This document shows positions 4,596 to 10,318 of a stretch of DNA of 29,913 bases, piece after piece. This stretch comes from a virus (lineage: Duplodnaviria > Heunggongvirae > Uroviricota > Caudoviricetes). The translations under genes were made by a program, and so were the position numbers. Position 1 is the stretch's first letter. Each line of letters starts with the position of its first letter. Location of the stretch: IMG/VR virus record IMGVR_UViG_2724678986_000028. One strand, written 5' to 3'. Below the pieces are notes generated by a model. The model worked only from the letters and a program-made list of their open reading frames with translations, ran no database searches and had not been told where the DNA came from.

Positions 4596-4985
4596 ATGAT
4601 TGACGCTCATGACTTCACAAGATGGGTGCGCACACAGGACACCCGTCTGGCTCCCATTCTTCGGGGATTATTTGATCTCTACATTCGTGGTCGTGACAAC
4701 AGAGCACGCACCACAAAACCGGAGAATGTGGATACCCTTTATTTCACAGTAGACGACTGCTACCGCGTGGACTTCACACCACACGGACTGGCGTTGCACT
4801 GCCTGACACCGCACGGCGAATCACTGCTGGCGTATTACGACTCCCCGGCCTCCGTATTTGCGGCAATGCTGGCGCATCGCACTGCTGGCGGGTGTGTCTC
4901 GCTGAGTGAATACACCGCTGAATTTAACCGCCTTTCCACCATCTTCTTGCAGGAGTGGCAGCGCGTGACGGGATACCAGCCATGA
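4596..4985 (+). CDS. Hypothetical protein immediately upstream of the replication gene
   Basis: 129-aa ORF; its stop overlaps the gpA start as ATGA. Confidence 0.5.
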   Translation: MIDAHDFTRWVRTQDTRLAPILRGLFDLYIRGRDNRARTTKPENVDTLYFTVDDCYRVDFTPHGLALHCLTPHGESLLAYYDSPASVFAAMLAHRTAGGCVSLSEYTAEFNRLSTIFLQEWQRVTGYQP

Positions 4986-7822
4986 GTGCGTTTGCATGGA
5001 GCTGGAATGAACCACGGCCAGCCATTGATCCGGCCAGATTTACGGAGCGCAGGCAGGAAACTGAAACCGACCTGCAACGCGCCATCCGTTACTACCTTGA
5101 GGCAAACAAAAGGGCACAGGAAGAACAGGAAGCGAAGGAGGAAGCCTTTTTCGCACAATCCACCGTGGGTAAAAAACTCATGGCATCCCTTGAGGAAGCC
5201 GGACAGCGTGAAAAGCTGGCACAAAGCATCATCAGCAAGCGTCAGGCAACAGAACAAGACCCGGTGGCCCGTGCTTTTGCCACACTGAAGGTGCTTCCCG
5301 TTTATCTGCGTGAACCTCTGAGCCGCCACCTCTCTTTTCTGCGCAAGAAGCAGGAAGCCGATCGTCAGAAAGGCAAAAAGAGCTGGCAGGCTGAACGCTA
5401 CGCGCGCGGAACCCTGCGCAAAATATTCGAACGTCTGGACCGCACCGACAGCCGCTGGCTGACACCGGGCTATCGCTCCCTTGCCGGACGCGAACGCCTG
5501 GACGATTTGCTTTACCTGCCGCAGCTCAACAAACACCAGATACAGACGCTGGCCACCATGACGGCGGCGATGTTCAGTGGCACTTTTGAAAAACTCTGCG
5601 ATGGCTTTGGCGCGACCGATGGCGAGCTGACCATGGATGTAACGCTGAAGGCGTATCAGATGCTGGCCCGCATGGCGTTACACCTGCACGCTATGCCTCC
5701 ACATTATGACGCTCTGACAACAGACAAAGACCGGAGGAATGAACCGGACACGGAGCTGCTGCCGGGCGCAATCCTTCGCCTGACCTGTGCGGAATGGTGG
5801 AAACGCAAACTGTGGCTGTTACGTTGCGAGTGGAGAGAAGAACAACTCCGCGCCGCCTGTCTGGTTTCCAGAAAAACATCACCCTATCTGAGCCAGGACG
5901 CGTTAAGCGAGTTTCGCGCACAGCGCGAGAAAACACGCGATTTCCTGAAAAGTTTCATGCTGGAAAACGAAGACGGGTTCACGATTGATCTCGAGACAGT
6001 GTATTACGCGGGAGTAAGTAACCCGATTCACCGTAAGGCAGAAATGATGGCCACCATGAAGGGGCTGGAACTTCTGGCCGAAGCCCGTGGCGACAGAGCG
6101 GTGTTTCTGACTGTCACCTGCCCGTCAAAATACCACGCCACAACAGAGAACGGTCATCCGAATCCCAAATGGAACGGGGCCACCATGCGCGACTCCAGCG
6201 ATTACCTGGTTAACACGTTTTTTGCGGCGGTCCGCAAGAAACTGAACCGCGACGGCCTGCGCTGGTATGGCATCCGCACGGTGGAGCCTCACCATGACGG
6301 CACCGTGCACTGGCATATGATGGTCTTTGCTCATCCGGAAGAAATCGACACCATTGTGTCCCACACCCGCGATATTGCCATTCAGGAAGACCGCCACGAG
6401 CTGGGCAATGATATTACTCCGCGCTTTAAGGTGGAGTATGTCGACGGCTCAAAAGGCACGCCAACCAGCTACATCGCCACCTACATCGGAAAGAACCTGG
6501 ACAGCCGCGCCGTGGATGGCATCGACCCGAAAACGGGCAAGCCACGCGTTGACCACGAAACCGGAAAATCAATGGCCGAGAGCGTGGAACGCGCCATCGG
6601 CTGGGCACGCCTTCACCGGGTCCGCCAGTTCCAGTTCTTTGGCATCCCCTCCCGTCAGGTATGGCGTGAACTCCGCCGCCTTGCCAGCCAGATGGCACGC
6701 AACCCGGAAGGCCCACAACGGCTGAAGGATGATGCAATGGATGCGGTACTCGCTGCCGCTGATGCCGGGTGTTTTGCCACCTACATTGAGAAACAGGGCG
6801 GCGTACTTGTTCCACGCAAAGACTACCTGATTCGCACCGCCTACGACCTCGCAGATGAGCTGAACGATTACGGCGAACAGAGCGTACAGATTTACGGGAT
6901 CTGGTCACCACTCATCGGGGAATCCTCCCGTGTGTGCACGCACCCGGATAACTGGAAGCTGGTAAGACGTAAACCGGAAGCGGAAGACAGCACCCGCGAA
7001 AATGGTTTTGACCTTCAGGGCGGCCCTGCCGCCCCTTGGACTCGTGGCAATAACTGTCCCCGTGTACAGGAAACGGACAACAACGGGACAGAACAGCCGG
7101 AAGAAAGGCCAGCACCGTGGCCGCAGCTTCCTGACGGCGTTGACGTGAATGAATGGATGCGCTCACTGAAACGGCACGAACGCCGGGCGCTGATGCGTTC
7201 GCTGCGTGACAAACAGGCAAAAAACAGCAGTGATGAAATGCAGAACTGGACACAGAGCCGCAAACAGCCACGGCCTTTGCCTGATAACCACGAGTTACTC
7301 GCTAAAGAATGGCGGGAGTCTGCTGAATCTCTCGGCCTGCATATCGGTGAACAGCAGATGCAGCACCTGTTACGGGGCGGCAGTCTGTACGTTGACGGCA
7401 GCATCATTGCACCGCAGGGATTTGAAATTGTACGCAAACCAGATACCCGCCCGGACAGCCGAATCACGCAACTCTGGCAGCGCCTGAGCCGTAATCACGG
7501 CGTAAGCAGCACGGAGATCCGCCATAACCCGGTCGCCAGCTATCTGGAACAGCTGGGGGCATCAGACCCCGAAGCCGCCGCACACCTGGCATCCACACTT
7601 CAGCAGGACCAGAACACCATGAAAACCCCCGTTACCGTGCTTTCTGACATGCTGCGCGCCATCCGTGACGCAGTGCACGCACAGAGAATCAGTGAAACCA
7701 CTGAACGCGCCCACCGCAAAGCAGACCTGCTGCGGGGTAGCCTGACCAGTGGAAACAAAAAACAGACAGAAACGGGACTCACAAATCCCGTAAATGAGCA
7801 AAAAACGTGCCGCGATATATGA
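4982..7822 (+). CDS. A: Rolling-circle replication initiator, P2 gpA family (HUH endonuclease)
   Basis: About 946 aa. HUH motif VHWHMMVF and paired-tyrosine motif SYIATYIGKN are visible. First ATG at 4982; the GTG at 4955 in the track has no usable SD. Confidence 0.85.
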   Translation: MSAFAWSWNEPRPAIDPARFTERRQETETDLQRAIRYYLEANKRAQEEQEAKEEAFFAQSTVGKKLMASLEEAGQREKLAQSIISKRQATEQDPVARAFATLKVLPVYLREPLSRHLSFLRKKQEADRQKGKKSWQAERYARGTLRKIFERLDRTDSRWLTPGYRSLAGRERLDDLLYLPQLNKHQIQTLATMTAAMFSGTFEKLCDGFGATDGELTMDVTLKAYQMLARMALHLHAMPPHYDALTTDKDRRNEPDTELLPGAILRLTCAEWWKRKLWLLRCEWREEQLRAACLVSRKTSPYLSQDALSEFRAQREKTRDFLKSFMLENEDGFTIDLETVYYAGVSNPIHRKAEMMATMKGLELLAEARGDRAVFLTVTCPSKYHATTENGHPNPKWNGATMRDSSDYLVNTFFAAVRKKLNRDGLRWYGIRTVEPHHDGTVHWHMMVFAHPEEIDTIVSHTRDIAIQEDRHELGNDITPRFKVEYVDGSKGTPTSYIATYIGKNLDSRAVDGIDPKTGKPRVDHETGKSMAESVERAIGWARLHRVRQFQFFGIPSRQVWRELRRLASQMARNPEGPQRLKDDAMDAVLAAADAGCFATYIEKQGGVLVPRKDYLIRTAYDLADELNDYGEQSVQIYGIWSPLIGESSRVCTHPDNWKLVRRKPEAEDSTRENGFDLQGGPAAPWTRGNNCPRVQETDNNGTEQPEERPAPWPQLPDGVDVNEWMRSLKRHERRALMRSLRDKQAKNSSDEMQNWTQSRKQPRPLPDNHELLAKEWRESAESLGLHIGEQQMQHLLRGGSLYVDGSIIAPQGFEIVRKPDTRPDSRITQLWQRLSRNHGVSSTEIRHNPVASYLEQLGASDPEAAAHLASTLQQDQNTMKTPVTVLSDMLRAIRDAVHAQRISETTERAHRKADLLRGSLTSGNKKQTETGLTNPVNEQKTCRDI

Positions 7823-7868
7823 AGCGCGCACAAAACAGGCAAAAGCGGGATTTAAAAATCCTGTAACC
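7760..7868. repeat. Imperfect direct repeat (two ~36-bp copies, each with an internal dyad) spanning the A 3' end and the parM leader
   Basis: Copy 1 at 7760-7795 (AAACAGACAGAAACGGGACTCACAAATCCCGTAAAT) and copy 2 at 7833-7868 (AAACAGGCAAAAGCGGGATTTAAAAATCCTGTAACC), about 27/36 identical. Each contains a CGGGA...TCCCG-type dyad. Confidence 0.5.
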
Positions 7869-7898
7869 GATTAATTAATCAACACAAGGAAAAGCGAC

Positions 7899-8858
7899 AT
7901 GAAAATTTGTATCGACGACGGCTCCACCAACATCAAGCTGGCGTGGACTGAGAACGGCGAACGCCGCAACGCCATCAGCCCGAACAGCTTCAAGTCGGAA
8001 TGGTCTGCGCCGTTCGGTGGCACGCAGCCCGCGAACTACATGCTTGATGGCGTGCGCTATGGTTTTGATCCGGTCAGCGATCGCTTTGTCCAGACGACCG
8101 ACACGCAATACCAGTACAGCGATGTGAATATAATTGCCATTCATCACGCGCTGGTCAAATCAGGCATCACACCACAGGAAGTGGATGTGGTTGTCACCCT
8201 GCCACTGAGCGAGTATTTCGATACAAACGCACAGCCGGACATGGCCAACATCAACCGCAAAAAAGCGAACGTCATGCGCCCGGTGGAGTACCAGAACGGC
8301 GAAGCATTCACTATCCGTAACGTACGGGTTATGCCTGAATCCATTCCGGCTGGCTTTAAGGCACTGGCTGACATGAGTCCGTTTGAATCCCTGCTGATTG
8401 TGGATTTGGGCGGAACCACTCTGGATGTGGCAAAGGTTCAGGGGCAACTGGCAGGTATCAGCCAGGTGTTTTGCGATCCACACGTGGGCGTTTCTCTGAT
8501 GGCCGATGCCGTACTGTCGGTGATGGCCACTAACGGTATGCGCACCAGTCACCACATCGCCAATACCATTATCGAACATCGCCATGATGAAGCCTGGCTG
8601 CGCCAGCACATCCACAATGACGCGCATTACGCCAGCCTGATGGCGGTTATTCGTGAAAAGGAAGAAACACTGAAACAACGCGTGATCCGCGCGCTGGCGG
8701 GTTTTTCGGGTTACGGGCGGGTGATGGTTGTCGGTGGAGGGGCGGAGATTGTGGCACCCGCTATCCGCGAAGCCTGCGGAGTTAATGCGACTTTCATCGC
8801 GGACGGGGTGCCACAGTTTGCTCTGGTTAATGGGCTGTACGCAATGGACAAGGAGTAA
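7899..8858 (+). CDS. parM: ParM/StbA-like actin-fold partition ATPase
   Basis: 319 aa. Actin-fold motifs IDDGSTNIKL (phosphate 1), IVDLGGTTLDV (phosphate 2) and VVGGGAE (adenosine). Collinear over its full length with plasmid R1 ParM as recalled. RBS AAGGA upstream. Confidence 0.85.
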   Translation: MKICIDDGSTNIKLAWTENGERRNAISPNSFKSEWSAPFGGTQPANYMLDGVRYGFDPVSDRFVQTTDTQYQYSDVNIIAIHHALVKSGITPQEVDVVVTLPLSEYFDTNAQPDMANINRKKANVMRPVEYQNGEAFTIRNVRVMPESIPAGFKALADMSPFESLLIVDLGGTTLDVAKVQGQLAGISQVFCDPHVGVSLMADAVLSVMATNGMRTSHHIANTIIEHRHDEAWLRQHIHNDAHYASLMAVIREKEETLKQRVIRALAGFSGYGRVMVVGGGAEIVAPAIREACGVNATFIADGVPQFALVNGLYAMDKE

Positions 8859-8862
8859 ACCA

Positions 8863-9174
8863 ATGACGACTCCAACCAGACGGATAAGTTTCTATCTGAA
8901 GCCCACCGCCGTCAAGAACGAAGGAGAAGCATGCGCCTGGCTGGACAGCCTTACACCAGAAGCCCGCAAAAGCGGCCAACGCGTGGCTTTTCTGGCCGGG
9001 CTGGCACTTCTGAAAATGAATCCGGCAGAGGCTTATCGACTGGCTGCATGGGCTGGTGATGAAGCGTTATCAGTGACACAAACCAGGACAGAACGCCCCG
9101 CATCACAGCCAGTATCAACCGCACAGATAACCAGTCAGATGGCCGGAAATATCCGGGCGTTATTTCCTGAATAA
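8863..9174 (+). CDS. parR: ParR/StbB-like centromere-binding adaptor
   Basis: 103 aa from ATG 8863, with AAGGAG 7 nt upstream (the track ORF from 8728 is over-extended). N-terminal RRISFYLKP...RVAFLAGLALL resembles the ParR RHH region; C-terminal NIRALFPE resembles the R1 ParR tail as recalled. Confidence 0.6.
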   Translation: MTTPTRRISFYLKPTAVKNEGEACAWLDSLTPEARKSGQRVAFLAGLALLKMNPAEAYRLAAWAGDEALSVTQTRTERPASQPVSTAQITSQMAGNIRALFPE

Positions 9175-9182
9175 CACAACAT

Positions 9183-9200
9183 CAGGGCGAGTTCGCCCTG
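9183..9200. repeat. Stem-loop CAGGGCGA-gt-TCGCCCTG
   Basis: Perfect 8-nt inverted arms, 9 nt after the parR stop; no T tract follows. Confidence 0.5.
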
Positions 9201-9237
9201 CTCTCCACCTCAGAACATAAACAAGGAGAACGACTTA

Positions 9238-9828
9238 ATGAGCGAAATCAACTATCAGGCATTACGTGAACGTTATTCACCTGTGCCAGTACCGAAATGC
9301 CCTATTTGCGGCGAGGAAATGTCAATTCAGCGAATATCTGGAGCACAGGTTGTTTATGCCTGCTCCGGTTATGGTGATGATGGAGATTTCAAAATTGGCC
9401 GAACTCTTGCCGACGAACATTATGAAAAATCACGCGTAACAGTGTTGGATGTCGGGGATCCTGAAGTATTGGCGCTACTTGATTGGCTGGAAACCAAAGA
9501 CAACCGAATCGCTGAACTGGAAAAAATCGCCACTGACTATGCACTTAAATTCCAGAAAGCACAGGACGCATTAAAGTATGCCGCTTTGCTGCATAGCAGG
9601 ACGGCGCAACAAACAAATAATTTTGCAGTATCGCTTCCGGACATAAGCGAATATTTCATTAATGACGTATTTCAGCCCTTGCGATACGAGCGGGATGTTG
9701 AAAGAGCCATCATAAAGGCTGGCGGAAAAGCATTGTGGCAGGAGAAACACGAGGACAGAACGCATCAGTCCTGCGATGTAAATCGTGGATGGTTTAGCCC
9801 ACTGACGACAGATAAAAATAACACCTGA
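9238..9828 (+). CDS. Hypothetical protein, Cys-containing N-terminus and central coiled-coil-like segment
   Basis: 196 aa; AAGGAG 9 nt upstream; N-terminal CPICGEEM...YACSGYG. The 3' half is AT-richer. No family assigned. Confidence 0.5.
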   Translation: MSEINYQALRERYSPVPVPKCPICGEEMSIQRISGAQVVYACSGYGDDGDFKIGRTLADEHYEKSRVTVLDVGDPEVLALLDWLETKDNRIAELEKIATDYALKFQKAQDALKYAALLHSRTAQQTNNFAVSLPDISEYFINDVFQPLRYERDVERAIIKAGGKALWQEKHEDRTHQSCDVNRGWFSPLTTDKNNT

Positions 9829-9840
9829 TCCCCCTCAAAC

Positions 9841-9866
9841 CAGGGCGATAATCGCGCATCGCCCTG
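9841..9866. repeat. Stem-loop CAGGGCGA-N10-TCGCCCTG, same arms as 9183-9200
   Basis: Identical 8-nt arms to the element upstream of the 196-aa gene; sits 12 nt after its stop. Confidence 0.5.
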
Positions 9867-9867
9867 C

Positions 9868-9901
9868 TGCACAATAGTGCACAAGTTTGCACAATTTTTT
9901 T
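9868..9901. repeat. Three TGCACAA iterons at exact 10-bp phasing followed by a T7 tract
   Basis: TGCACAA at 9868, 9878 and 9888, then TTTTTTT at 9895-9901; lies in the noncoding region upstream of the portal end. Confidence 0.5.
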
Positions 9902-10268
9902 GAACGACTTTTTACCCTTCCGGCCCGCATGGCGGCTGGATCCGTCAAGGATCCGTGCGTGCACAAAAAAACGCGCTTTTTCTGCGCGCAGGTGACGGGG
10001 GAACAGCCCGCGTTTCAGGGGGTAAATAGCATCCCCTGAACGATGTCGCAGCGACACAACAGAATGGCTGTATTTCTCACGCTGAGCGTGAAGAATACGT
10101 GAGGGATTCTGATTTGATGGGGTGAAAGGTAAGGCCGTCAAAATCGCACTGAGGCGGCGAGAACATGCAGTCAACGCGGTGGGATTGCGTAAGAGTCTGA
10201 CCGTCGATGGTGGCGATAAACTGGAAGGCGTCGTGAAATTATCTGACTGATACAGGAGCTGGAGAGTC

Positions 10269-10291
10269 GGGGCATAAATTTTTTATGCCCC
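10269..10291. repeat. Palindrome GGGGCATAAAtttTTTATGCCCC downstream of the portal gene stop
   Basis: Perfect 10-bp arms, 28 nt downstream of the Q stop on the minus strand. No flanking U tract, so terminator status is uncertain. Confidence 0.4.
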
Positions 10292-10318
10292 GGCGAAGCA
10301 GCAGACAAGCGAAGCGCG

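Follow-up and report, generated by a model that had tools for sequence, protein, structure and literature searches.

Two phased palindromes upstream of parM as the probable ParR site of a P88-like prophage parMR cassette

Two 38-bp repeats, one within the end of the replication gene A and the other in the leader of parM, are likely to be the ParR operator and centromere (the parC equivalent) of an R1-type parMR cassette carried by a prophage. The DNA analysed (IMG/VR record IMGVR_UViG_2724678986_000028, 29,913 nucleotides, hereafter the window) is an integrating E. coli prophage of the P88-like type (Xuanwuvirus, P2-like), in which R1-type parM and parR genes sit directly after gene A (Table 1). 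The core of the element consists of two 16-bp palindromes of the form GGGAYW-N4-WRTCCC with their centres 73 bp apart, probably a different architecture within the known kind of parC. From the repeats and their conservation we infer ParR binding and its stoichiometry, repression and segregation activity.

Results

The paired repeats and their dyads

An earlier note on this DNA had described two imperfect direct copies (7760-7795 and 7833-7868) with 27 of 36 bases identical, and the same figure was obtained when the comparison was recomputed. The best ungapped register was 7756-7793 against 7829-7866, in which 30 of 38 bases are identical (79%) at a start-to-start spacing of 73 bp. This pairing is not due to chance: in dinucleotide-preserving shuffles of positions 7650-7949 (n=500) the best 38-mer self-match had a mean of 21.0 (sd 1.15) and a maximum of 26, while 30 was reached in 0/500. 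The note's placement of copy 1 within the end of gene A and copy 2 in the parM leader agrees with the gene A stop at 7820-7822 and the parM ATG at 7899, the 76-nt gap between which holds copy 2.

The CGGGA...TCCCG-type dyad that had been ascribed to each copy was found in both, with a spacer of 8 nt rather than 7 and a mismatched arm in copy 2. Dyad 1 is an exact CGGGA-N8-TCCCG (7773-7790) with half-site centres 10 bp apart and extended arms ACGGGA/TCCCGT (7772-7791), and dyad 2 is CGGGA-N8-TCCTG (7846-7863), with one arm mismatch in the window's copy. Core to core, the two palindromes span 89 bp and offer four inverted half-sites in all. Matches to GGGA-N8-TCCY in the 30-kb window were confined to positions 649, 7774 and 7847. 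Over the ribosome-binding site of parM there is also a weaker third match (7880-7905, 73% of 26 nt); it was not counted as a repeat, since it lacks a dyad and is not retained in relatives. No other repeat arrays were found in or beside the parMR cassette; in place of a tandem array of direct iterons of about 10-20 bp, none of which was seen near the cassette, there are two separated inverted units.

Table 1. Features of the gene A-parMR region of the window (positions are those of the whole stretch)
Feature	Position	Strand	Details
Gene A, P2-type replication endonuclease	4955-7822	+	Phage_GPA 8.9e-130; 3' end overlaps repeat 1
Repeat copy 1	7756-7793 (38 bp)	.	A-rich left flank, then dyad 1; within last gene A codons
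Dyad 1 core GGGACTCACAAATCCC	7774-7789	.	GGGAYW-N4-WRTCCC
Spacer between repeats	7794-7828	+	Gene A stop 7820-7822; GC-rich imperfect dyad at about 7807-7831; weak promoter-like pair
Repeat copy 2	7829-7866 (38 bp)	.	Gene A-parM intergenic leader
Dyad 2 core GGGATTTAAAAATCCT	7847-7862	.	Begins 52 nt upstream of parM ATG
Conserved leader	7874-7891	+	ATTAATCAA at 7874-7882 with -10-like ATTAAT; Shine-Dalgarno AAGGAA 7886-7891
parM, actin-like segregation ATPase (319 aa)	7899-8858	+	StbA_N 3.7e-82; ParM C-terminal domain 1.3e-68
parR, putative ribbon-helix-helix adaptor (103 aa)	8863-9174	+	PF10784 3.1e-23
GC-rich hairpin CAGGGCGAGTTCGCCCTG	9183-9200	.	Right after parR stop; called on minus strand only in terminator scan

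The parMR cassette

Gene A, the true start of which is probably a few codons downstream of 4955, is context for the paired repeats and not a functional part of the element. The genes downstream are, as judged by their homologues, genuine R1-type parM and parR. ParM matched R1 ParM structures in the PDB at E = 1.2e-92 and is 46-52% identical to plasmid ParM proteins; at 0.006 for codon positions 1-2 against 0.065 for position 3, its diversity indicates strong purifying selection, and between P88 and the window the protein is 99.7% identical, compared to 96.7% for the 1.8 kb of DNA around it. The parR gene begins 4 nt past parM, with a ribosome-binding site (AAGGAG) at 8850-8855, and the hairpin that follows it is the probable end of the cassette transcript. 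ParR has the N-terminal strand TRRISFYLKP, and residues 6-14 are invariant in 17 variants. Its C-terminal tail, NIRALFPE, is of a conserved form (NAxxLFP) which can be aligned to the C terminus of R1 ParR, and residues N96 and L100 of the tail are invariant in an alignment with phage relatives, R100 StbB included. The ribbon-helix-helix fold stays putative, as the AlphaFold monomer model reached a pLDDT of only 53.8, and ParR had no match in the PDB at E up to 1.

A consensus scan of the + strand gave no convincing sigma-70 promoter between or beside the repeats. A candidate in the spacer (ATGAGC 7794-7799/TATATG 7816-7821) scored 1.5 compared to 11.9 for R100, and a weak -35-like TTTAAA (7851-7856) lies in the centre of dyad 2. 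PWM scoring placed a weak candidate consistently in the window, P88 and the Hafnia phages L186 and L084, with its -35 inside dyad 2 and its -10 at -23 to -28 (scores 1.5-8.0, compared to 10-12 in R100 and pOXA-48). The dyads are probably transcribed, since the terminator scan found no + strand terminator parting gene A from parM. The leader element ATTAATCAA also precedes parM in L084 and in the Plesiomonas phage L087.

Of 5426 complete E. coli genomes, 1308 (about a quarter) carry the phage, O157:H7 and ST131 strains among them. One complete assembly lists the whole phage as a 34.5-kb circular 'plasmid'.

Conservation and variation of the dyad pair

The earlier note had named conservation of the repeat alongside the cassette as a check, and this was borne out, the dyads being kept with the ParR type in P88, two Hafnia lineages and Plesiomonas. 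In the window, L146 and P88 the dyads are 73 bp apart and lie 52 nt before the parM ATG. A GGG-N10-CCC pair was found 73 bp apart and 55 nt before the ATG in L084, 72 bp apart and 59 nt before it in L087, and, in the Hafnia MAG L186, a pair with a perfect GGGATTCATGAATCCC lies 73 bp apart and 51 nt before the ATG; across the dyad lineages the spacing is 72-74 bp and the distance to the ATG 51-59 nt. A position-matched GGG-N10-CCC corresponding to dyad 1 is present in L084, L087, L186, L146, L184 and P88, and in the five relatives scanned (L084, L087, L186, L184 and P88) the pair is the sole one of its kind 60-90 bp apart within 5-14 kb. ParM of L084 and L087 is only 62% identical to that of the window. 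The inter-dyad gap is 56-57 bp in every lineage, and its sequence can barely be aligned to L084 and L087 (z ~2). The left flank of copy 2, AACAGGCAAAAGCGGGA, is nearly identical in a Serratia phage, L088 (AACAGGCAAAAACGGGA).

L084 carries a 167-aa ORF between gene A and parM, and since its dyad pair still lies immediately 5' of parM despite this insertion, the placement indicates that the element travels with parM, independently of gene A. In an open scan of IMG/VR the paired-dyad pattern had parM next downstream in 118 of 119 loci, all of them P88-like, so that this association represents linkage in one lineage only.

Neither the GGG nor the CCC triplet varied among 43 distinct versions of the dyad, and the central 4 nt were the most variable part of the dyad (pi 0.19, compared to 0.065 at parM third codon positions), a pattern which fits a protein site. 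At position 7862, C is the base in 100 of 123 P88-like haplotypes and T in the other 23; dyad 2 thus reads TCCC at 7859-7862 in 100/123, and the TCCT of the window is a common polymorphism. Counting against a ParR site, the non-coding region in the P88 lineage changes at roughly the synonymous rate. Its GGG/CCC triplets were not significantly less diverse (pi 0.041 compared to 0.065, P = 0.27), and a P value of 0.03 was obtained only once polymorphic site 7862 had been removed post hoc.

Co-variation with the ParR strand

In every lineage with the dyad pair (window/P88, both Hafnia and Plesiomonas) the strand of ParR reads TRR[IV]SFYLKP. A sister clade of Serratia- and Enterobacter-type phages has the strand NRKISFYLKP and, in place of the dyad pair, inverted arms ATAGAAAAAT/ATTTTTCTAT; the site is built of inverted ATTTTTCT-type motifs, the iteron type of plasmids sharing the strand NRK[IC]SFY. 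Plasmid pOXA-48 combines this iteron motif, TATTTTTCT, with the strand NRKCSFYIYP, and an IncF plasmid (L179) has a pOXA-48-type strand and similar T-rich upstream repeats. In each of R100, D6 and the Kosakonia, Cronobacter and Erwinia plasmids a different strand accompanies different iterons, RRTIAFK being paired with AAACCC (R100) and RRKIxFY with TCTCTTATTT. The half-site AAWCCC resembles the R100/R1 iteron AAACCC, and the Hafnia sequence GGAAACCCAAAAAC nearly matches AAAACCCAAAAAC of R100. Across these comparisons the sequence of the site co-varies with the predicted DNA-reading strand of ParR. The split of motifs between ParR types is not clean, because the inverted repeat of the sister clade still has GGGAAC...GTTCCC at its outer ends.

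Comparison with known systems

The parC of R1 and R100 (the stb locus) resembles the window site in lying directly upstream of parM; that of R1 also has two blocks and a gap (39 bp, compared to 57 bp in the window), and that of R100 has A-rich DNA with AA dinucleotides phased at 10.5-11 bp (p ~0.015 in the window and L186, 0.002 in R100). R100 StbB is 25% identical to the ParR of the window and has a similar C-terminal tail. In R1, parC is operator and centromere in one and extends over 159 bp as 2 x 5 direct iterons of 11 bp, each bound by one ParR dimer (PMC2241845), whereas the window has two isolated 16-bp palindromes. The gap of R100 holds a strong promoter (TTGACT/TAAACT, score 11.9), whereas the window has weak candidates only, and R1 and R100 are low-copy plasmid replicons while the window is an integrating P2-like phage.

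The cassettes of the sister clade occupy the same slot, between gene A and the portal gene, and share the left flank GCAAAAACGGGA. Their presumed parC, like those of pOXA-48 (IncL) and the IncF plasmid, is a symmetric (inverted) site with a motif matching the ParR strand type; the sister clade has one long inverted repeat with 19-20-nt arms 26-30 nt apart, unlike the two short palindromes of the window.

In pSK41, pB171 and pCW3, parC consists of short repeats upstream of parM which are bound by a ribbon-helix-helix ParR dimer or dimer of dimers; these are direct repeats, of 20 bp in pSK41, two of 10 bp in pB171 and four of 17 bp in pCW3 (PMC9426499). In size these units (10-20 bp) compare well with the dyad of the window (16-20 bp), and no sequence similarity was detectable between its ParR and those of pSK41 and pCW3, with no PDB match at E up to 1. 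In the C. glutamicum prophage CGP3, AlpC and AlpA are an actin-like filament protein and a DNA-binding adaptor whose sites (alpS, 24 short TTAAnnG repeats) lie upstream of the operon, and AlpAC is required for efficient phage DNA replication upon induction (PMC4446434). CGP3, which differs in host phylum and phage type and is likened by description only, provides a precedent for the role of a centromere-like site in an integrating phage.

Discussion

The view in the earlier note that the paired repeats are the likeliest cognate ParR site is supported by their conservation, their linkage to parM and the absence of other arrays. Ribbon-helix-helix operators of the P22 Arc/Mnt type have inverted half-sites about one turn apart that are bound by a dimer of dimers, and the window dyad is like them in general terms; Arc and Mnt are pure repressors without a filament-binding tail, unlike ParR. 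On the arrangement proposed here, each 6-bp half-site would take one ParR ribbon-helix-helix dimer, giving a dimer of dimers on each palindrome, and with the centres 73 bp (about seven turns) apart both complexes would lie on the same face of the helix. By bending or wrapping the 57 bp between them they may cooperate, in the way that R1 ParR acts on its two blocks of iterons. The exposed C-terminal tails (NIRALFPE) would then capture the ends of ParM filaments, by which copies of the phage DNA would be moved. Such a complex would also occupy the sole transcription path into parM, whether read-through from gene A or a weak promoter with its -35 within dyad 2, and parMR might in this way be autoregulated too.

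According to a 2022 paper (PMC9426499), every ParR characterised by then binds direct repeats, so the palindromes would be a departure from known ParR sites; the 38-bp units are direct repeats of each other but lie 73 bp apart. Also counting against the ParR-site reading are the lack of a good sigma-70 promoter flanked or overlapped by the repeats and the number of half-sites, four compared to the 10 iterons of R1 (PMC2241845), which may be too few for a filament-capturing ring. It had been suggested earlier that the centromere, being shorter than the R1 array, might be minimal or located elsewhere; no other array lies near, and the site is made of palindromes rather than shortened R1 iterons. 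A search of the searchable literature for the paired-dyad site returned nothing.

The palindromes could instead be operators of another DNA-binding protein (C, Cox, Ogr, the derepression protein, gpA or a host factor), which would govern how transcription of the early operon reads through into parMR. Helix-turn-helix dimers, too, typically bind 16-bp palindromes with half-sites 10 bp apart, copy 1 falls within gene A where the early operon ends, and ParR is itself named as the binder by inference. We consider this unlikely, as the pair keeps its distance to parM even with a gene inserted past gene A, the paired motif occurs nowhere else in the 30-kb window, where a general phage regulator should have more targets, and the motif type shifts together with the ParR strand across clades; the dyads are also presumably unlike P2 Cox boxes or TGT-N12-ACA Ogr sites (P2/186). 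There is a small chance that the dyads act not as protein sites but as RNA hairpins of a gene A-parM transcript, in processing, stability or parM translation. With no + strand terminator after gene A they are probably transcribed, the + strand of 7740-7910 forms hairpins at both dyads when folded (-36.3 kcal/mol, z = -3.0), and the deviations in dyad 2 of the window (G7845 and T7862) could still form G-U pairs on that strand. What is kept, however, is base identity rather than the ability to pair: the GGG/CCC triplets alone are invariant while the varying pairs are often broken (6-8 of 43 variants), and 90.7% of cells pair owing to invariant sequence, with two-sided changes in only 4 cells. 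Possible stems fall to 3-4 bp in L084 and L087, dyad 1 of L186 is a loop-less 16-bp palindrome in which full hairpin pairing is impossible and which would be ideal for a dimeric protein, and no Rfam family was matched at E up to 1.

It is improbable to a greater degree that copy 2 is a leftover duplication of the 3' end of gene A or part of a real 26-codon gene (7794-7874). In the small ORF copy 2 has the codon register that copy 1 has in gene A (KKQTETGLTNPVNE vs TKQAKAGFKNPVTD), and the copies are 79% identical as DNA, yet only 6/14 as peptide. Of 67 haplotypes 66 keep this ORF open, as does the diverged L186, and a natural 73-bp deletion (L172) joins it to gene A in frame, but no ribosome-binding site lies ahead of 7794 and in L084 and L087 the dyad pair falls in other frames or lacks an ORF. 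The ratio of synonymous to non-synonymous changes was 13:31 in frame, compared to 9:38 and 10:36 in the other frames, and the differences to L186 are spread 8/8/7 over the three codon positions, giving no coding signature. Scarcely credible, finally, is that each repeat is a minus-strand intrinsic terminator or that the region is the phage replication origin. The scan does call a terminator on the minus strand (7791-7772, tail TTCTGTCTGT), the A-rich left flank of both repeats serving as its T-run; that form is limited to the P88 lineage, the T-run is missing in L087 and L084 though the dyads are kept, and no minus-strand gene has its end here. The P2 origin does lie in the 3' part of gene A, but its nick site is 427 nt upstream of the gene A stop, and the homologue in the window, which has CAATAACTGT in common with it at the corresponding codon, is located at about 7025-7055, some 740 bp before the dyads are reached. 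The P2 20-mer itself has no match in the window with up to 3 mismatches allowed, and in L084 another gene parts the dyads from gene A.

With the repeats read as a ParR site, the part that the cassette plays in the phage may be considered. Of the 1456 places at which the phage occurs in the complete E. coli genomes, 1454 are chromosomal, which leaves no evident use for a centromere, and the searchable literature yielded nothing on what a parMR cassette does during the phage life cycle. It is possible, if doubtful, that a complete actin-type machine with a minimal palindrome-pair centromere moves or separates excised, replicating phage circles after induction, as has been proposed for AlpAC of CGP3, or supports an unrecognised plasmid-like carrier state, instead of partitioning a plasmid. 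ParMRC is the textbook minimal DNA-segregation machine, and an R1-family relative with two phased palindromes would show how few ParR dimers suffice to cap a ParM filament. The ParMRC centromeres described so far are direct repeats (PMC9426499); if the present reading is true, ParR on inverted half-sites would give the R1 family a new way of recognising its centromeres, and the palindrome pair would also show a switch in recognition from direct to inverted sites. A defined cis site would in addition provide a handle by which the role of parMR in the phage could be made testable.

The parMR cassette and its genomic setting

The window (29.9 kb) was assigned to the P88 group of P2-like temperate phages (Peduoviridae, Xuanwuvirus) and also carries portal, terminase and tail genes; its 7400-9300 region shares 99.7% identity with Xuanwuvirus P884B11 and 96.7% with phage P88. 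The positions of the features discussed are listed in the table below. The predicted ParM protein has 46-52% identity to plasmid ParMs and matched solved structures of R1 ParM at 1.2e-92. The ParR protein is 25% identical to StbB of R100, with a C-terminal tail that aligns with the end of R1 ParR; its sequence had no match in the PDB, and its AlphaFold2 monomer model had a mean pLDDT of 53.8, which is too low to use. A defence-system reading was rejected, as ParM, ParR and Ead/Ea22 had no PADLOC match. The GenBank records of P88 annotate parM and parR without a repeat or centromere feature, and the searchable literature yielded nothing on the repeat site of this phage.

Features of the window, in nucleotide positions
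Feature	Position	Strand	Description
Integrase	1-1002	minus	
Gene A	4955-7822		P2-type replication gene; stop codon 7820-7822
Probable phage ori	~7025-7055		Inside gene A
Repeat copy 1	7756-7793		
Dyad 1	7773-7790		CGGGA-N8-TCCCG
Small ORF	7794-7874		26 codons (MSKKRAAIYEARTKQAKAGFKNPVTD)
Repeat copy 2	7829-7866		
Dyad 2	7846-7863		CGGGA-N8-TCCTG
parM	7899-8858		Directly after gene A; Pfam StbA_N (3.7e-82), ParM C-terminal domain (1.3e-68)
parR	8863-9174		Directly after parM; PF10784 (3.1e-23)
Variable cargo region	9175-10318		Ead/Ea22
Tandem repeat	9868-9895		2.8 copies of TGCACAATAG

The cassette was present in 1308 of 5426 complete E. coli genomes, in up to 3 copies per genome, giving 1456 places of which 1454 were chromosomal and 2 on plasmid records. 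One circular plasmid record of 34,461 bp (NZ_CP148288.1, L188) is a whole P88-like phage with integrase, cox, gene A, parMR and structural genes. Diversity (pi) in parM was 0.006 at codon positions 1-2 compared to 0.065 at position 3, and this strong constraint on ParM indicates that the cassette is in use. Among E. coli prophages ParM identity was 91-100%, while that of ParR ranged from 97% down to 52% because the linker (approximately residues 64-95) is hypervariable; the conserved parts of ParR are most of residues 1-63 and the end of the C-terminal tail, NIRALFPE, of which N96, I97, F101 and P102 are invariant.

The product of gene A is approximately 940-955 amino acids long, compared to 761 in P2. 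Only residues 194-518 of the window protein fall within the Phage_GPA domain, and the alignment to P2 gpA stops at residue 759, leaving a C-terminal extension of approximately 200 amino acids which ends in repeat copy 1. On the other side of the conserved parMR lies a region of variable cargo (at the same place in loci L084, L088, L090, L092 and L183), where other phages carry HicAB, a KAP NTPase, DUF3800 or a pair of HTH and M78 peptidase genes. The small tandem repeat between the Ead/Ea22 gene and the portal gene lies where cos is expected in a P2-like genome.

Geometry and variation of the repeat pair

Two imperfect direct copies, at 7760-7795 and 7833-7868, had been claimed in the earlier note to match at 27 of 36 positions, and this count was exact; the best register gave 30 of 38 matches at a distance of 73 bp, compared to a best match of 21.0 +/- 1.15 (maximum 26) in 500 dinucleotide shuffles of the surrounding 300 bp. 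The observation of paired repeats with dyads upstream of parM was confirmed. Their placement also held, with copy 1 within the last codons of gene A and copy 2 in the 76-nt gap upstream of parM. The internal dyads are present in both copies, with a spacer of 8 nt rather than 7; a search using the CGGGA-N7-TCCCG geometry missed both sites. A match at 7071 (AAACGGACAACAACGGGA) lacks a dyad partner and was taken as chance rather than as an extra copy, as were three further one-mismatch dyad matches scattered in the window. A third repeat copy at 7880-7905, over the ribosome-binding site of parM, was not counted because it has no dyad and is lost in the diverged Hafnia MAG locus L186. Phasing of AA/A-tracts was significant in the window and L186, not in the Hafnia (L084) or Plesiomonas (L087) loci, and is therefore not a conserved property.

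Variation was assessed in 67 distinct P88-like haplotypes over the 145 nt upstream of parM, and in a larger set of 123 which also covers 600 nt of parM. In the 67 haplotypes the GGGA and TCCC blocks were almost invariant, while the middle four bases of each dyad (TTTAAAAA or TTTCAGAA in dyad 2) were the most variable positions; the core was thus defined as a 16-bp palindrome, GGGAYW-N4-WRTCCC, whose two half-sites are centred 10 bp from each other. The TCCT of the window is a common allele (23 of 123 haplotypes). Diversity of the whole non-coding stretch was similar to that of third codon positions in parM (pi of 0.04-0.07 versus 0.065), and the GGG/CCC triplets were not significantly less diverse (P = 0.27; P = 0.03 only after post hoc removal of site 7862). 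Since non-coding diversity is close to synonymous, shallow conservation within the lineage does not by itself support function. In one natural variant (L172, IMGVR_UViG_2657245439_000011; upstream of parM at 1501), 73 bp between the repeats are cleanly deleted, which leaves one hybrid repeat with a single dyad and joins gene A, in frame, to the end of the small ORF; this may be a true recombinant or a collapsed assembly.

Conservation in distant relatives

The decisive evidence is the comparison with distant relatives. Other P2-like prophages encode ParM homologues of 54-62% identity, in every case at the equivalent position flanked by gene A and the portal gene, and three lineages which are barely alignable to the window in non-coding DNA have the same dyad architecture.

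Dyad pairs in three lineages distant from the window
Lineage	Dyad 1	Dyad 2	Spacing	Dyad 2 to ATG
Hafnia (L084)	GGGATTGAGGAAACCC	GGGTTCATTAAATCCC	73 bp	55 nt
Plesiomonas (L087)	GGGACAACAAAAACCC	GGGACAACACTAACCC	72 bp	59 nt
Hafnia MAG (L186)	GGGATTCATGAATCCC	GGGATTTGAAAATCCC	73 bp	51 nt

In each of L084, L087, L186, L184 and P88 this was the sole GGG-N10-CCC pair 60-90 bp apart in the 5-14 kb scanned. All lineages keep 56-57 bp between the dyads, with hardly any similarity in sequence (z of approximately 2 versus shuffles); the natural spacings of 72 and 74 bp arise by single-base slippage in an A-run. In L084 an ORF of 167 codons lies between gene A and parM and the dyad pair still adjoins parM, which argues that the element belongs to the par cassette and not to gene A. 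Across phages the dyads fall in different reading frames, or in none, which excludes coding constraint as their explanation.

An open scan of IMG/VR with a degenerate paired-dyad pattern returned at least 119 loci; among the 119 matches listed, parM starts 52 nt downstream in 118, all P88-like, and one was chance-like. When genome and viral collections were scanned with ParM for further diverged lineages, nearly all matches were relatives of at least 98% identity; in IMG/VR, queries with ParM of Hafnia and Plesiomonas added nothing new, and a word-indexed protein search with the Plesiomonas ParR found only itself. One contig labelled Vagococcus sp., a Gram-positive genus (L002, NZ_JBQPOM010000071.1), encodes a ParM 98% identical to the E. 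coli phage protein and is probably contamination or a mislabelled assembly.

Association of repeat type with the ParR strand

The N-terminal DNA-reading strand of ParR is TRR[IV]SFYLKP in every lineage carrying the palindrome pair, and residues 6-14 were invariant in 17 E. coli ParR variants with diverged linkers and an overall identity of 54-58%. In a sister clade (Serratia-/Enterobacter-type P2-like phages) the strand is NRKISFYLKP and the palindrome pair is absent; in its place is a single long inverted repeat (arms ...GGGAACGAAATAGAAAAAT and ATTTTTCTATTTC...), whose arm motif ATTTTTCT is the iteron of pOXA-48 (ParR strand NRKCSFYIYP). Similar T-rich repeats lie upstream of parM in an IncF plasmid (L179) with a pOXA-48-type ParR strand. 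R100 combines the strand RRTIAFKLNP with AAACCC-type 11-bp iterons, plasmids of Kosakonia, Cronobacter and Erwinia combine RRKIxFYLNP with TCTCTTATTT-type iterons, and the phage-plasmid D6 has TCTCAA-type repeats. These pairings indicate that, across the family, the ParR strand and the type of repeat preceding parM vary in concert. The earlier note would have counted loss of the repeat where the cassette is kept as a refutation; the cassette is kept without the repeat only where the DNA-reading strand of ParR has also changed.

No plasmid with a TRR-type ParR was found: tblastn of the window ParR against PLSDB returned prophage-derived records only, and a profile search of 1.84 billion representative proteins recovered this strand only in P88, Hafnia and Plesiomonas phage proteins. 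The plasmids with the nearest ParRs differ in both strand and iterons. The phage half-site AAWCCC resembles the R100 iteron (Hafnia GGAAACCCAAAAAC, R100 AAAACCCAAAAAC).

The sister-clade inverted repeat consists of 19-20-nt arms around a small GC hairpin upstream of parM (L088, L175, L090, L093/L096, L095 and L176). Two Serratia phages differ in this hairpin by a compensatory change (GCCGCCAGCGGC versus GCCACCAGTGGC), and a second hairpin, GCCGTTTAAACGGC, follows it.

Alternative explanations and transcription

As an alternative, the dyads could act as RNA hairpins, and the + strand does fold better than shuffles (z = -3.0). However, it is base identity and not pairing that is conserved: across 43 distinct dyad variants 90.7% of cells pair, but both partners have changed in only four cells, and pairing is lost at the variable pairs in 6-8 of the 43. 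Furthermore, the stems are only 3-4 bp in L084 and L087, one L186 dyad has no loop at all, and there was no match in Rfam. The dyads may otherwise be bound by a DNA-binding protein different from ParR, but such a protein must explain why the motif occurs nowhere else in the phage and why it tracks the ParR type.

A replication origin at the dyads was rejected, as the nick site of P2 lies 427 nt before the gene A stop and its window homologue lies inside gene A. There, CCTGCCGCCCCTTGGACTCGTGGCAA followed by TAACTGT is found at the gpA codon matching the P2 nick site (ATCGCCGCGCCTCGGAGTCCTGTCAATAACTGT); this is the probable phage ori. Minus-strand terminators were rejected because the T-run is confined to the P88 lineage. 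The small ORF fills the gap between gene A and parM; 66 of the 67 P88-like haplotypes keep it open, as does L186, and repeat copy 2 has the same codon register in this ORF as copy 1 has in gene A. The ORF was rejected as a gene since it has no coding signature (synonymous to non-synonymous counts of 13:31 in frame versus 9:38 and 10:36 in the two alternative frames; 8/8/7 differences among the three codon positions); no ribosome-binding site was found for it.

No strong promoter was detected with a simple sigma-70 matrix, the best scores in P88-type phages being 1.5-8.0 compared to 11.9 for R100 and 10.1 for pOXA-48. Weak candidates recur at one place, with the -35 in the centre of dyad 2 and the -10 (ATTAAT/TATATT) 23-28 nt before the ATG. 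No + strand terminator was found between gene A and parM, and after induction transcription of the early operon may simply continue into parMR.

A candidate centromere in an integrating phage

The best-supported reading, which we consider likely, is that the repeat pair is a parC-like centromere/operator of parMR. ParR would bind each palindrome as a dimer of dimers, and the two complexes, seven helical turns apart, could cooperate across the gap. In R1 each of ten 11-bp iterons binds one ParR dimer, and the DNA takes the shape of a U, folded by the two iteron blocks (PMC2241845); the four half-sites of the window are few in comparison with these ten iterons. All ParR proteins characterised by 2022 have been stated to bind direct repeats (PMC9426499). 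The nearest functional precedent is the Corynebacterium prophage CGP3, where the actin-like AlpC and its adaptor AlpA bind repeats that precede their operon and are needed to replicate phage DNA efficiently after induction (PMC4446434). The pair described here would represent a new architecture for an element of a known kind, in which phased palindromes replace direct iteron arrays in an integrating phage.
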